33,162 nt of DNA from Campylobacteraceae bacterium. GTDB taxonomy: Bacteria; Campylobacterota; Campylobacteria; Campylobacterales; Sulfurovaceae. The DNA is taken from NCBI GenBank assembly GCA_026986085.1, contig JALSPE010000111.1, positions 1-33,162 of the forward strand, written 5' to 3'. Under the pieces are notes generated by a model that searched no databases, had not been told where the DNA came from, and worked only from the letters and a program-made list of their open reading frames with translations. A program made the position numbers and the translations under genes. Below, piece by piece: positions 5,333-33,162 of the stretch (its first letter is position 1; the number at the start of each line of letters is the position of its first letter).

Positions 5333-6147
5333 CTTGGGCAATAGGCGATATACAAGGCTGTTTTGATAACTTTCAAAACCTTTTAACCAAGATAAACTTT
5401 GACCCAAATAGAGACAGGTTATGGCTTGTGGGTGATTTAGTAAATAGAGGCAACAAATCTTTAGAGGTTTTAGAGTATGTTTATGAGCATAGAGAGTCAA
5501 TAGATATAGTGCTTGGAAATCATGATATTAGTTTAATTGCTGCATATTTTGGATTAAAAAAGAGTAATCCAACTATAGAGCCAATTTTAAATTCTGCTAA
5601 GGCTGAGAGTTTGATAAATTGGCTTAGAAGTCAGCCATTTTTACATATTGATTACAATTTGGGTTATGCAATGGCTCATGCTGGAATTGCTCCAAATTTT
5701 CAATTAGGAGCTGCAAAGCACTATAATGATATTTTACAACAAAGATTAAACTCAAAAGAGGTAAAAGAGTGGTTAAAAATTATGCTTAGCAAAGAGACAG
5801 ATCATTTTGAGCCACATGGGCAAAATAGTGATATAGAGAGATATGCACTAAATAGCTTTATTAGAATGAGATATTGCTATAAAAATGGGTATTTAGATTT
5901 TAAACAAAAAGGCTCTCCTTATACTCTAAAAAGAGATGATTTATACCCTTGGTTTGATTGCCCTATAAAAGAGAAGAAAGAGTTAAAAATAGTTTTTGGT
6001 CACTGGTCCACTCTTGGGTTTTTAGATAGAGATGATATATTAGCATTAGATACGGGCTGTCTATGGGGTAGAGAATTGAGTGCTTATAATTTAGAAAGTA
6101 GAGAAAGAGTTTTTGTTAAATGTAAAGGGATAGATATTATAAAATAA
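5329..6147 (+). CDS. apaH: Bis(5'-nucleosyl)-tetraphosphatase, symmetrical
   Basis: Calcineurin-like metallophosphatase motifs GDIQGC, GDLVNRG, GNHD and GH..; ~270 aa ApaH architecture. 4-nt ATGA overlap with the upstream gene. Confidence 0.88.
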   Translation: MTWAIGDIQGCFDNFQNLLTKINFDPNRDRLWLVGDLVNRGNKSLEVLEYVYEHRESIDIVLGNHDISLIAAYFGLKKSNPTIEPILNSAKAESLINWLRSQPFLHIDYNLGYAMAHAGIAPNFQLGAAKHYNDILQQRLNSKEVKEWLKIMLSKETDHFEPHGQNSDIERYALNSFIRMRYCYKNGYLDFKQKGSPYTLKRDDLYPWFDCPIKEKKELKIVFGHWSTLGFLDRDDILALDTGCLWGRELSAYNLESRERVFVKCKGIDIIK

Positions 6148-6171
6148 CTTTTGCACTTAAATCATCTATAT

Positions 6172-6560
6172 AAGTTAGAGTTTTAAAAGTAAAGTATATT
6201 ACTCTTCTTTTTGGACACTCGAATTTATTCCTACCAATAAGCTTGAAATTAACTTTTTTGTTTAAATAGACGCTAATGAATTCGCCTGTCCATATTATTT
6301 GAAATTTGTTTTGTTACTTAGCATATAAATTTAACTTTACACTTAAAATATTATTTTATGATGCTAGTAAGCTACTATCTATATTTAATACAAAAATTAT
6401 CATGGCTCTTGACATTGTATATTTAAATTTTTAAATAATCTATTTATGGGATTTTAAAAAGTGAATAGTTTTTGTCAAGATATATGACAATTTTACATCA
6501 GATGCCACAATAGCACTGTTTAGTTTAAAATTTTAGTTAAAACTAGGTGTGAAAGTTAAG
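6172..6560 (-). repeat. Intergenic repeat family, copy B (full R+L, reverse orientation, most diverged)
   Basis: The reverse complement aligns with 32551-32913. The R half (6172-6395) directly follows the apaH stop. The L half (6395-6560) contains TTGACA 6409-6414 and the palindrome TTGTCA-N7-TGACAA 6472-6490. Both hairpins are partly degraded here (6269-6290, 6216-6235). Confidence 0.85.
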
Positions 6561-6595
6561 ATTATAAAATAGTAGAGTTTTTGCAAAAACTTGCA

Positions 6596-23569: not shown

Positions 23570-23602
23570 TATAACCTTTCCCCCTAATTCTAAGTAGTAT
23601 TA

Positions 23603-23624
23603 ACCCAAATTATGCAATAGAAAT
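23603..23624 (+). repeat. Solo copy of the terminal 22 nt of the 25160-25323 palindromic element
   Basis: ACCCAAATTATGCAATAGAAAT is identical to 25160-25181. No partner arm is nearby. Confidence 0.8.
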
Positions 23625-23627
23625 GTA

Positions 23628-23663
23628 TCAGCAAAACACGAATAAATTCGCGTGTCTGTTTTT
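23628..23663. terminator. Bidirectional rho-independent terminator between the convergent XRE-family gene and the fumarase beta gene
   Basis: Hairpin ACACGAATAAATTCGCGTGT (23636-23655) flanked by AAAA on the left and TGTTTTT on the right, so either strand reads stem-loop plus U-tract. It shares the CGAATAAATTCG core with the repeat-family hairpins. Confidence 0.65.
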
Positions 23664-23719
23664 CCTAAAATTATTTTTTTGAATATTTGAGTTTAACTAT
23701 TGTATATCTTTTAAACCTA

Positions 23720-24287: not shown

Positions 24288-25139
24288 TTAAATTGTTATA
24301 TGAGTATGTCTTGAGCTATGACATTGAACATTTACAGAAACAGGAAGAGATGCAATATGGCATGGGTTTGCCTCAATATGCACACCAAGAGCTGTTTTTG
24401 TTCCACCCATTCCCATTGCACCAATTCCTAGCTTGTTAATCTCTTCTAATATAATCTCTTCTAACTCTGCCATCTCAGGGTCTGGATTTTTAGTCCCTAA
24501 ATCTCTAAATAGAGCGTGTTTAGAGCTAATACAAGCCTTTTCAAATGTTCCACCAATTCCAACACCTACCGTTATTGGAGGACATGGATTTCCACCTGCA
24601 TCACTGATTACCTCTTTAACATAGTTAATAATTCCCTCTTTACCAGCAGCTGGTGGGAATACTCTAGCGCGACTTACATTTTCGCTACCACCACCTTTTG
24701 CAGCATACTCTATCTCTATTTTATCACCCTCAACAATATCAAAGTGTATAATTGCAGGTAGGTTATAACCAACTGTATCTTTTAGATTAGCACGACTAAA
24801 TGGTTCACAAGTAGATGCTCTTAAGTAGGCATCTGTATAACCTTTTTCTGTGCCTTCATTAATTGCATCTTTCAACAATCCTCCAACTACTCTAACATCT
24901 GCACCAACACGCACAAAAAATACTGCCAAACCAGTATCTTGACAAAGCGGACGCTTCTCATCTCTTGCAATTTTTGCATTCTCTAAAAGTTGCGCAATTA
25001 CCTTTTTGCTAACTTCTGATTTCTCCTCTTTATAAGCTGTTTCTAAATACTCTAATGTATCTTCTGGAAGGTTGGTTGCTGTTGTCATAATCATATTTTT
25101 AACTGCTTCAACTATATCGTTATATTCCACTTCTCTCAT
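24288..25139 (-). CDS. Class I (Fe-S) fumarate hydratase, alpha subunit (N-terminal domain type)
   Basis: 283 aa with CQDTG and GGGSEN motifs and conserved Cys residues of the Fe-S hydro-lyase alpha region. Confidence 0.87.
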   Translation of the reverse strand: MREVEYNDIVEAVKNMIMTTATNLPEDTLEYLETAYKEEKSEVSKKVIAQLLENAKIARDEKRPLCQDTGLAVFFVRVGADVRVVGGLLKDAINEGTEKGYTDAYLRASTCEPFSRANLKDTVGYNLPAIIHFDIVEGDKIEIEYAAKGGGSENVSRARVFPPAAGKEGIINYVKEVISDAGGNPCPPITVGVGIGGTFEKACISSKHALFRDLGTKNPDPEMAELEEIILEEINKLGIGAMGMGGTKTALGVHIEANPCHIASLPVSVNVQCHSSRHTHITI

Positions 25140-25159
25140 ATTTTCTCCTAATTGATTTG

Positions 25160-25323
25160 ACCCAAATTATGCAATAGAAATCACCAAACTATCAATAGTC
25201 ATTGTGCCGTGGGCATTTACAAAAAATCATCGCCTAACCTTTGGGTTAAGCTCAAATTTTTTGCAAACACCCACAACACAAGCACTATCAATAATTTTGG
25301 CAATCCTATTGCATAATCTGGGT
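25160..25323 (-). repeat. ~165-nt imperfect palindrome (MITE/ERIC/Correia-like), predicted long RNA hairpin in the mdh-fumarase intergenic transcript
   Basis: Left arm 25160-25239 pairs with right arm 25244-25323. The outer 18 positions (25160-25177 with 25306-25323) are complementary except for one A/C mismatch. Across the arms, 12 A/C or C/A mismatches on the plus strand become G-U pairs on the minus strand, and there are none of the reverse type. Confidence 0.8.
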
Positions 25324-25364
25324 TTAAGGCTACAAGCTTTTTGCTTTTTTGCAATAAAAAATTT

Positions 25365-26321
25365 TTAATCAAAGAATTTTTTATCTTTAAGCACATCTAT
25401 CATCTCTCTTACTGATGAGACAGAGTGAGCAAATCTACTCTTTTGCTCATCATTTAGTGTCATTTCAAATAACTTCTCTACACCATTAGCTCCAAGTGCA
25501 ACAGGAACACCACTTACCACATCACTATATCCATAGTGTCCATCCAAATATACTGCACAAGGGTGAATTTGTTTTGTATCTTTTAGTATTGCTTCAACCA
25601 TAATTGCTGTAGATTTTGCTGGTGCATAGTATGCTGAGCCAGTCTTTAAATAACCAACAATTTCAGCACCGCCATTTTTTGTTCTCTCTACAATCTCTTC
25701 TATCTCATCTTTGCTTAAAATATCAGATAAAGGAACCCCAGCTACAGTAGAAAATTTTGGCAGTGGCACCATTGTATCACCATGACCACCCATAACACTA
25801 GCTCTTATTTGCCCAGCTCCATATCCAATTTTTTCATAGATAAAATGAGCCATTCTAGCACTATCTAAAATTCCTGCCATTCCAATTACTCTCTCTTTTG
25901 GAAAACCAGACTCTTTAAGTGCAACATATGTCATTACATCAAGTGGATTTGAAACCATTATAATTATAGATTCAGGTGCATATTTTTTAACATCTTGAAT
26001 AACCTCTTTTGTTATTTCAGCATTAATCATAAGAAGGTCATCTCTACTCATTCCCGGTTTTCTTGGGCTTCCTGCTGTAATTACTACAATATCACTATCT
26101 TTCATCTGCTCTGCTTCGTGTGCCACAGTTACAACTGTATGAGTTCTTGCCGCATTTGCAGCTTGAGACATATCTAAAGCCTTTCCCATAGAGATATCTG
26201 GATTTCTATCTCTTAAAACAACTTCGTGGCAAACACCCTTCATAGCTAAAGAGTATGCTACTGTAGCACCAACATTACCTGCACCAATAATTGTTACTTT
26301 TTTACCTCTTTTTCTTTCCAT
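25365..26321 (-). CDS. mdh: Malate dehydrogenase (LDH-like, NAD-dependent)
   Basis: GAGNVG Rossmann motif. [13 protein letters not shown] has Arg at the substrate-discriminating position, typical of MDH rather than LDH. Catalytic GGHGD. Confidence 0.92.
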
Positions 26322-32396: not shown

Positions 32397-32550
32397 TAAA
32401 CTCTTCTATATAAAATATTTAAATGTAATTTTAGCCAATTTTATTAAATTATAGAAGTATTATAGATATTTTACTTAATTTGTAAATATAAATCATTTAA
32501 AATATACCATGCTGTGTGTCTTTACCAGAAGCATTTAATTTATTTATTAC

Positions 32551-32913
32551 CTTAACTTTTGCGCCTAATTTTAACTAAAATTTCAAAGTAAACAGTGGTA
32601 TTGTAGTATCTTTAAAAAATTGTCATATATCTTGATAAGAACTATTTATTTTTCAATATGCAATGTCAAGAGTTGTGATAACTTTTGTATTAAATATAGA
32701 TAATAGCTTGTGCTAACACCACAATATAATGATTTAAGTTAAAAAGTTAAATTCATACACTAAACAATAAAGCATATATCAAATAATACGGACACGCGAA
32801 TTAATTCGCGTCTATTTAGGTTAAAAAGTTTATTTGAGCTATTGCCTCGAATAAATTCGAGGGTCCGATAAGAAGAGAAATAAACTTTACTTTAAAAGCT
32901 TTAGTTTACTAGC
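32551..32913 (+). repeat. Intergenic repeat family, copy D (full L+R)
   Basis: L half 32551-32690 carries TGTCAA (TTGACA on the minus strand) at 32664-32669 and TTGTCA-N7-TGATAA at 32620-32638. R half 32690-32913 carries the perfect 16-nt palindrome CGCGAATTAATTCGCG at 32795-32810 and the 7-bp hairpin CCTCGAA-TAAA-TTCGAGG at 32845-32862. Confidence 0.88.
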
Positions 32914-32929
32914 ATTATGAAATATCGAT

Positions 32930-33029
32930 GATTTAAGTTAAAAAGTTAAATTCATACACTAAACAATAAAACATATATCAAATAATACGGACACGCGAAT
33001 TAATTCGCGTCTATTTAGGTTAAAAAGTT
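32930..33029 (+). repeat. Partial tandem duplicate of the R-half hairpin-1 module
   Basis: 99/100 identical to 32731-32830 (single G-to-A difference, 32772 vs 32971), offset 199 nt. Ends 6 nt before the stop codon of the rlpA-like gene. Confidence 0.95.
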
Positions 33030-33035
33030 AATTTA

Positions 33036-33162
33036 CTACTTCTTATAAAAATTTTTTGTATCTTTAACAATATCAATTTTTACCTTGGCTACACCACTTT
33101 TTATGAGTCCAATTTTTTTAGCAGCTAAATATGAGAGGTCCAAGACTCTACCTTTAACATAA
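33036..33162 (-). CDS. RlpA-like (double-psi beta-barrel) lipoprotein, C-terminal fragment; gene continues beyond window
   Basis: The minus-strand frame reads ..YVKGRVLDLSYLAAKKIGLIKSGVAKVKIDIVKDTKNFYKK*, matching the conserved GR..DLS..AA..LG....G...V C-terminus of RlpA family proteins. Only 41 codons are visible, and it is absent from the ORF track because it is partial. Confidence 0.5.
   Translation of the reverse strand, partial: YVKGRVLDLSYLAAKKIGLIKSGVAKVKIDIVKDTKNFYKK

Follow-up and report, generated by a model that had tools for sequence, protein, structure and literature searches.

Between the malate dehydrogenase gene (mdh) and the gene for the alpha subunit of class I fumarate hydratase (fumA) of a Sulfurovaceae genome (Campylobacteraceae bacterium, GenBank assembly GCA_026986085.1) lies a long hairpin whose two strands are unequal as folding molecules. 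The stretch analysed here, referred to as the window, is the contig JALSPE010000111.1 (33,162 nucleotides, positions 1 to 33,162 of the forward strand). A first-pass annotation of the window proposed that 12 mismatched pairs in the hairpin would all become G·U wobbles in the minus-strand RNA and none in the plus-strand RNA, and read this 12:0 signature as evidence that RNA structure had been selected in the direction of the mdh and fumarase mRNAs. The question raised by the locus is whether the asymmetry was selected where it now stands. We find that the hairpin is very probably a recently inserted MITE (miniature inverted-repeat transposable element) of the IS1380 family, mobilized by a DDE transposase encoded elsewhere, and that it carries a wobble bias inherited from its family.

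The hairpin itself withstands inspection. Its arms, the 12 A/C pairs and two further mismatches were all reproduced on checking. The inverted repeat (25160-25239 and 25244-25323) was returned by a repeat finder as two 80-nt arms with 74% Watson-Crick pairing and a 4-nt gap. On the plus strand, every one of the 12 listed pairs sets A against C or C against A; of the two listed non-wobble mismatches, one is C/C and the other A/G. Folded as RNA, 25150-25335 reaches -98.4 kcal/mol on the minus strand (z = -15.1) and -59.7 kcal/mol on the plus strand (z = -7.6). The comparison of both strands that the first-pass annotation had suggested thus shows energies that are far from equivalent, the minus strand being much the stabler. 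The minimum free energy structure of the minus strand contains 14 G·U among 74 pairs, compared with 1 among 59 for the plus strand. With DNA parameters the values are -45.0 and -35.3, narrowing the gap between the strands to 10 kcal/mol from 39 kcal/mol with RNA parameters. The hairpin and its strand asymmetry are real and far above chance expectation. We refer to the minus strand of the window copy, and to its equivalent in other copies, as the “wobble” (W) strand.

The core of the element runs from CCC to GGG over 162 bp (25161-25322), the W strand of which forms a hairpin of about 74 bp. It is gene-less and contains only mechanical open reading frames (ORFs). The fumA-proximal terminal inverted repeat, CCCAAATTATGCAATAG (25161-25177, plus strand), is matched by the mdh-proximal repeat, CCCAGATTATGCAATAG (25306-25322, minus strand); CCCARATTATGCAATAG stands at both ends, and the base of the stem carries the 16-mer ATTGCATAATYTGGGT on both arms. 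The terminal repeats of the MITE are 17-22 bp long and are the same as those of full-length IS1380-family elements, and the fumA-proximal repeat recurs beside IS1380-family transposase genes (L036, L243). At locus L036, from a Helicobacter metagenome-assembled genome (MAG), and at L090, from a Bacteroidales MAG, two repeats lie about 1.4 kb apart and enclose one ORF of 429 or 421 amino acids. Both ORFs are IS1380-family DDE transposases, with matches to NF033539 above its cutoff (7.6e-71 for L036 and 1.8e-71 for L090) and to PF13701. The inverted repeat of L036 extends over just 22 nt (TTAAACCCAAATTATGCAATAG). The Aliarcobacter cibarius plasmid pACIB (L243) matches the transposase in 7 places, with 78% identity at best, and one insertion sequence (IS) on it is bounded by CCCGCATTATGCAATAG and CTATTGCATAATCTGGG, with ATAAT flanking each side. 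From the shared terminal repeats we infer that the MITE would be mobilized in trans by an IS1380-family transposase.

The flanking sequences are consistent with such an insertion. Read in the mRNA sense, on the minus strand, the window element has TTAAA on its mdh side (25323-25327) and TCAAA, one mutation from TTAAA, on its fumA side (25156-25160), and we assign these as the duplicated target site. With the element taken as CCC...GGG, identical 5-bp flanks are present in 57 of 93 metagenome copies, with the consensus TTWAA. Because several different sequences occur (TTAAA, TTTAA, TTTAT, ATTAT, TTCAA, TTAAT and others), these flanks are target duplications and not repeat sequence. Two close relatives (L244 and L245), whose FumA falls in the same 90%-identity cluster, have an empty site, namely a 65-nt mdh-fumA spacer with a single TTAAA. 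Exactly at this point the window, L001 and L246 have TTAAA, the element and T(T/C)AAA, and L246 has TTAAA on both sides. The hairpin is thus short and gene-less, shares its terminal repeats with an IS, is flanked by a target duplication, occurs in dispersed copies and is polymorphic at its site; as judged from sequence, it has every feature of a MITE that sequence can reveal. Dozens of near-identical copies lie at unrelated loci. Since the nearest of these (L210, L224 and L161) differ from the window copy by only 4-6 nt, the MITE has evidently been active recently in this population.

Other identities for the element were tried. Its interior does not appear to be a deletion derivative of a full IS, as similarity stops after the 18-22 nt of the terminal repeat. 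A plasmid origin was rejected, since blastn of the element against plasmids gave no match. A known Rfam family was likewise rejected: nothing in the window reached a gathering score, and at a relaxed threshold the one match was at chance level (mir-581, E = 0.37, with 18.7 bits where the gathering score is 100). Literature searches on IS1380 MITEs, on Campylobacterota MITEs and on wobble-biased MITE hairpins gave no description of this family, and it is apparently undescribed so far.

To survey the family, we used two scans. A genome scan with the 16-mer ATTGCATAATYTGGGT, restricted to one genome per species, gave at least 119 loci. A metagenome scan used a strand-specific interior pattern that fixes 22 nt of one arm and also gave at least 119 loci; among these were at least 93 distinct insertion sites with both repeats, or at least 90 after stricter clustering. 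Among the matches listed from the genome scan, 70 of 119 loci carry the extended 20-mer (C/T)TATTGCATAATYTGGGTT, for which less than one is expected by chance, and at many loci an inverted partner repeat lies 147-171 nt away. Single MAGs contain several of these loci. The hosts include Campylobacterota, Flavobacteriia, Cytophagia, Chitinophagia, Calditrichota, Chitinivibrionales, Ignavibacteria and others. None of the at least 119 genome loci listed with the repeat is an mdh-fumA locus. The extended 20-nt repeat was also seen in a Methanosarcinales MAG (L020), two Clostridia MAGs (L019 and L022), an Opitutales genome (L024) and two from Ignavibacteria (L009 and L032). Its presence in MAGs assigned to archaea, Firmicutes and Verrucomicrobiota may reflect very broad horizontal spread or mis-binned contigs. 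A mini element was observed in a Cytophagales MAG (M037S2SP1A04QC), where two terminal repeats stand only 18 nt apart, with 16-mer starts 34 nt apart, and form a 50-nt perfect hairpin, ACCCAGATTATGCAAT-GCTGACGGTACTGTCAGC-ATTGCATAATCTGGGT (L054, 3074-3123); it recurs at several loci of this MAG (L023, L029, L056, L093 and L105).

We then asked whether the wobble bias belongs to the window copy or to the family. Six Campylobacterota copies, namely the window and five copies found via the strand-neutral terminal repeat, have their bias on the same intrinsic strand, with G·T to A·C counts of 12:1 in the window, 14:0 in L120, 15:1 in L064, 11:2 in L027, 10:1 in L055 and 10:1 in L098. A Chitinivibrionales subfamily with a different interior is polarized as well (12:3 in L006, 11:1 in L016 and 9:0 in L101). 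Within the subfamily of the window copy, all copies recovered carry the bias on one and the same intrinsic strand. In an alignment of 89 copies (A4), on which all pair counts are based, 96.0% of cells hold a standard pair on the W strand, compared with 37-47% when partners are slid by 1-3 columns. G·U occupies 880 cells, about 17% of the total, against 39 for A·C, and the complementary strand would pair in 79.4%. Outside the 22 nt fixed by the metagenome pattern, G·U still occupies 476 cells and A·C 37. Changes on both sides, that is compensatory changes, were found in 30 of 57 pairs. The covariation score was 0.376, compared with 0.06-0.08 for slid partners and 0.172 for shuffles, and none of 500 shuffles reached the observed value. 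Among subfamilies, 17 pairs switch between G-C and A-T, with W-strand intermediates in 299 G·T and 21 A·C cells. One feature is nearly invariant, a tandem wobble of which the 5'-arm half lies at 25268-25269 and the 3'-arm half at 25214-25215, both on the minus strand. Its pair 25269·25214 (U·G, alignment columns 58/115) is kept in 88 of 89 copies and its pair 25268·25215 (G·U, columns 59/114) in 89 of 89, and the tandem is also present in all 6 of the copies found via the terminal repeat alone. The wobble bias and the hairpin body are heritable traits of the family. The 12 wobbles of the window are not 12 independent local events, since most of them are common to copies at other loci.

When does the constraint act? 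If transcription at the insertion site had selected the foldable strand, copies should lie preferentially in the sense orientation, and the first-pass annotation had itself named the absence of such a bias as evidence against its view. Across the at least 90 sites, whose orientation we called by a longest-ORF heuristic applied to short contigs from metagenomes, 11 have the W strand in sense with both neighbours and 22 have it antisense; 16 sites lie between divergent genes and 10 between convergent ones (11, 23, 16 and 10 before the stricter clustering). Thus the W strand is not the transcribed direction wherever the element occurs. Sense and antisense copies do not differ in mean W-strand free energy (-82.7 and -83.2 kcal/mol, respectively; p = 0.97), and their wobble counts are alike. 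With stability and wobble counts equal across orientation classes, we reject selection in situ in the sense copies. As a side observation, there is a weak antisense excess beside co-directional neighbours (22 against 11, p ~0.08), and where a gene reads into the element the W strand is antisense to it in 38 cases and sense in 23. The excess, if real, would suggest selection against a very stable RNA hairpin in transcripts.

The variants within the alignment point the same way. Variants found in a single copy, our best proxy for mutations after insertion, show no bias (11 create G·U and 15 create A·C), whereas a strong bias marks those common to several copies (235 cells against 49); 37 double, compensatory variants were also found. 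Of the G-to-A and T-to-C changes on the W strand, those that restore a pair have reached at least two copies at 19 of 26 sites, and those that break one at only 8 of 57 (Fisher p = 2e-7); this test assumes that the consensus G·U is ancestral, and if G·U is derived, the 19 “restoring” variants are retained ancestral pairs. The compensatory doubles and the slid-partner controls are independent of that assumption. Because single-copy mutations are unbiased, the constraint acts on the lineages that make copies and not on the inserted copy. Our conclusion is that selection keeps one strand foldable during the propagation of lineages, and not after insertion or through the mdh-fumA context.

What the folded strand does during propagation is a more tentative matter. 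In the mechanism that we consider, the transposase would bind the two terminal repeats and insert the element with a 5-bp staggered cut, and a folded single strand would take part in the propagation of the MITE, which is our preferred reading. A hairpin of single-stranded DNA would draw together the two ends of the element, whose 160 bp correspond to about one persistence length of duplex DNA. Across subfamilies, G-C pairs become A-U by way of G·U, on one fixed strand, and almost never by way of A·C. The polarization would need no strand-specific machinery: provided that only one strand folds at a time and that activity rises steeply with stability, an element whose wobbles all lie on the same strand would do better than one that has them split between the two, and further wobbles would then be tolerated on that strand only. 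We slightly favour single-stranded DNA as the form of the folded strand that is under selection, with RNA nearly as likely. The stronger statement, that a MITE lineage of the IS1380 family (related to piggyBac) which crosses phyla has been selected for one foldable strand, and that the folded strand is obligatory for its propagation, is possible, and we put it forward tentatively.

Several points weigh against our main explanation. DDE transposases are commonly regarded as enzymes of double-stranded DNA, and a requirement for a single strand has no known basis in this transposase family. To our knowledge, a folded-strand requirement is known for HUH/REPIN and attC systems and not for this transposase superfamily. 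No similarity to a transposase or to a REP-associated tyrosine transposase (RAYT) was found in the window, and the link to a trans-acting transposase consists of the shared terminal repeats. Between the interior of the MITE and the subterminal regions of the two full-length elements examined, no similarity was found. The pattern used for the metagenome scan is strand-specific, with the bias persisting outside it and in the copies found through terminal repeats, and the orientation counts depend on the heuristic described above. Finally, the copy with the greatest stability among the 89 is that of the window, which lies in the sense orientation, so some local effect is possible.

A second possibility, which likewise falls well short of an even chance, is that the family is selected at the RNA level and that a W-strand transcript is functional, as an RNase III-processed hairpin, as a stabilizer or terminator at mRNA 3' ends or as a regulator of the transposase. 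It would account for the tolerance of G·U and not of A·C, and Correia and ERIC elements, which act as RNA hairpins, provide a precedent. The larger energy gap between the strands with RNA parameters and the conserved tandem motif favour this option, as does the share of G·U cells. The motif, 5'-UG-3'/3'-GU-5', has been kept although either transition in the 3' arm, which is the unconstrained arm, would give a Watson-Crick pair. The apex of the hairpin also resembles an intrinsic terminator: an apical stem-loop, GCTTAACC-CAAA-GGTTAGGC, followed by GATGATTTTTT, was picked out at 25232-25251 (minus strand) by a terminator-like scan, apex and T-run fit the pattern, and this is the best-conserved interior segment of the MITE subfamily. 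However, a transcript over both arms would have to start outside the element, the only good -10 boxes in the repeats pointing outward, and together with the orientation data this weakens the option. Of 59 sites that could be classified, only 11 have both neighbours in the sense of the W strand; sense and antisense copies are equally stable, and the mutations after insertion are unbiased.

Strand-specific mutation, in the form of deamination (C-to-T and A-to-G) on one strand of a transposition or replication intermediate, combined with shared ancestry and with no selection on the fold, seems unlikely to us. It is true that every change that creates a wobble on the W strand is C-to-T or A-to-G on that strand, and that many wobbles are inherited and not independent. 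Against this, the variants that have spread are concentrated at pair-restoring sites, given an ancestral G·U, and the 37 compensatory doubles and a covariation about 5-fold above the slid controls speak for the fold whatever the polarity. Copies also occur in both orientations relative to host genes, and a bias from host replication or transcription should average out among them. Mutation bias alone is therefore disfavoured, and it may cover part of the signal.

The view of the first-pass annotation, that the asymmetry was selected locally and that the hairpin is a processing site or stabilizer of the mdh-fumA mRNA, is very unlikely to hold, even though the setting of the window copy suits it. 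The genes around it are all on the minus strand, in the order monomeric isocitrate dehydrogenase, mdh (25365-26321; PF00056 and PF02866), hairpin, fumA (24288-25139; PF05681, 1.8e-107) and the fumarate hydratase beta gene. mdh and fumA are co-directional and 225 nt apart, and the W strand of the window copy is sense. The element was inserted 17 nt upstream of the fumA start, within a cluster of tricarboxylic acid cycle genes. The fumA Shine-Dalgarno sequence AGGAGA (25145-25150, minus strand) lies outside the hairpin, 5 nt below the duplicated target site and 10 nt from the hairpin, as originally noted, and among the 89 aligned copies none is more stable than the one in the window (-97.7 kcal/mol, against a mean of -84 with a standard deviation of 8). 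Yet the position is not conserved among orthologous loci, since it is empty in relatives within the same FumA cluster; most of the 12 wobble positions are shared with unrelated loci, the nearest 4-6 nt away; the family has no sense-orientation bias; and the orthologous copy in L246 is already weaker by about 10 kcal/mol (-85.9 against -96.0 kcal/mol). A locus-specific cis-regulatory RNA of the mdh-fumAB transcript is rejected on the grounds of the empty site and the orientation counts. The causal reading of the 12:0 signature, selection in the direction of the flanking mRNAs, is not supported; the asymmetry was inherited. The high stability of the window copy is compatible with a young copy and is by itself no proof of local selection.

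The insertion may nevertheless have local effects, which we regard as its by-products. We accept that the hairpin lies within a likely read-through transcript from mdh to fumA, as the first-pass annotation had it. Such an RNA would hold a duplex of about 74 bp, a plausible substrate for RNase III, which ends above the fumA Shine-Dalgarno sequence and leaves the ribosome-binding site itself unsequestered. The best promoter-like match of the region (TTGATA-18 nt-CATAAT, 10 of 12 matches, 25166-25195, minus strand), a match to consensus only, lies inside the fumA-proximal arm and points outward to fumA, with its -10-like box CATAAT within the terminal repeat, about 26 nt upstream of the fumA start. 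Judging from these features, effects on fumA expression are possible, and the insertion could change the coupling of mdh and fumarase expression.

Just downstream of the fumarase beta gene we observed a second, short and degenerate element of the same family (about 88 bp, 23604-23691, minus strand), with one exact terminal repeat, CTATTGCATAATTTGGG, one degenerate repeat beginning CTCAAATATTCAA, and the flanks TTAAA and TTAAT (23692-23696 and 23599-23603). fumAB is thus bracketed by two related elements, and L244 and L245, in which the mdh-fumA site is empty, also lack the element at 23604-23691. The window contains in addition an unrelated repeat family with units of about 100-200 nt, present as one copy at 1-230, in tandem at 32540-33112 and inverted at 6145-6570. 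These repeats hold the small GC-rich palindromes ACGCGAATTNATTCGCGT (4 copies, at 108, 23636, 32794 and 32993) and CCTCGAATAAATTCGAGG; the copy at 23636 lies inside the short element.

The weakest alternative, a REPIN made of two inverted repetitive extragenic palindromic (REP) sequences mobilized by a RAYT (a Y1/HUH transposase), has a negligible chance of being right: its conserved ends, hairpin spacer and the RAYT genes common in the same communities notwithstanding, the 5-bp target duplications indicate staggered, DDE-type integration, the terminal repeats match IS1380-family elements and not RAYT flanks, and the RAYT genes are themselves interrupted by the MITE. The HUH mechanism is not known to leave a target-site duplication. 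What had drawn attention to it is a contig, L002 (MAG contig JBPMRN010000058.1), which encodes an identical FumA and in which a fragment of a Y1/HUH transposase gene (PF01797, 3.2e-16) is joined to the hairpin loop and followed by the fumA-side arm. Full-length relatives of this fragment are RAYT-type proteins of about 200-270 amino acids with a C-terminal extension. At L161 and L223 the MITE interrupts a RAYT gene at about codon 117, with a TTTAA duplication of its own. The RAYT flanks carry no MITE repeats; they have a hairpin of different sequence, GGGTTAGGT-TCATT-ACCTGACCC, following the pattern GGGTYAGGT-N5-ACCTRACCC. L002 is best read as a chimera or a recombinant across two MITE copies. 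The RAYT-type Y1 transposase gene family was seen in the same population at L161 (1-960), L223, L002 (1-450) and L003; the gene copy interrupted by the MITE has, in addition, a solo terminal repeat in place of an internal segment, and L003 has an internal duplication of the RAYT 5' region.

Comparison with known systems places the element among MITEs of the IS1380 family (NF033539, PF13701), with which it shares small size, lack of genes, the terminal repeats of autonomous elements, a 5-bp duplication, dispersed copies and insertion polymorphism. It differs from them in that its interior is no deletion remnant of the full-length elements examined, and in having a palindromic body whose length hardly varies (about 163-169 bp), with compensatory changes and a wobble bias on one strand. 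The eukaryotic piggyBac transposons, to which IS1380 is related, have CCC...GGG ends and a TTAA target. The present element likewise has 5'-CCC...GGG-3' ends and an AT-rich, TTAA-like target (TTWAA, in the window at 25156-25163 and 25320-25327), with the difference that its duplication is 5 bp and not 4 bp and its host is bacterial. IS1380 transposases have been used as an outgroup for piggyBac (PMC10813416). We report the resemblance as an observation and not as a tested homology.

Correia/NEMIS elements of Neisseria and ERIC elements of enterobacteria are palindromic, MITE-like intergenic repeats of 100-160 bp, often co-transcribed, which form long RNA hairpins cleavable by RNase III or RNase E and can carry outward promoter elements. 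The likeness to such transcribed palindromic repeats, drawn at first sight of the hairpin, is borne out, in that those are MITEs like this element, palindromic and potentially transcribed. The present element has no sequence similarity to them and differs in its hosts, its terminal repeats and its target, which is TA for Correia. Processing of the RNA is a trait of those elements; the orientation data argue here against selection through host mRNA. REPINs are tied to Y1/HUH RAYT genes and are not known to produce target duplications. In their structure, conserved ends enclose a variable hairpin spacer, their length and capacity to fold are constrained, and compensatory changes are frequent (Bertels & Rainey 2011, PMC3116915). 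Our element has the same combination of conserved ends and variable spacer and the same constraint on length and hairpin capacity, suggesting a folded single-strand intermediate; it differs in its 5-bp duplications and DDE-type repeats, the local RAYT having another REP hairpin. In its evolution it is like a REPIN and like a structured single-stranded nucleic acid. Integron attC sites offer a looser analogy. They are imperfect palindromes of which one folded single strand is active, with structure kept more than sequence, and they are recombined by a tyrosine integrase, not transposed, and leave no target duplication. The likeness lies in structure over sequence and in the folding of one strand, and is one of analogy only.

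For annotation, these results imply that a perfect strand-specific wobble signature with covariation in a mobile repeat should not be equated with a locus-specific regulatory RNA, because the signature travels with the element. The MITE family that it marks, apparently undescribed, is very widespread and tied to a conserved IS1380-family terminal repeat and a TTWAA target. The structural constraint on one strand, acting at the level of the family on a DDE-type MITE, offers a testable way to ask whether a folded single strand takes part in transposition in this superfamily.

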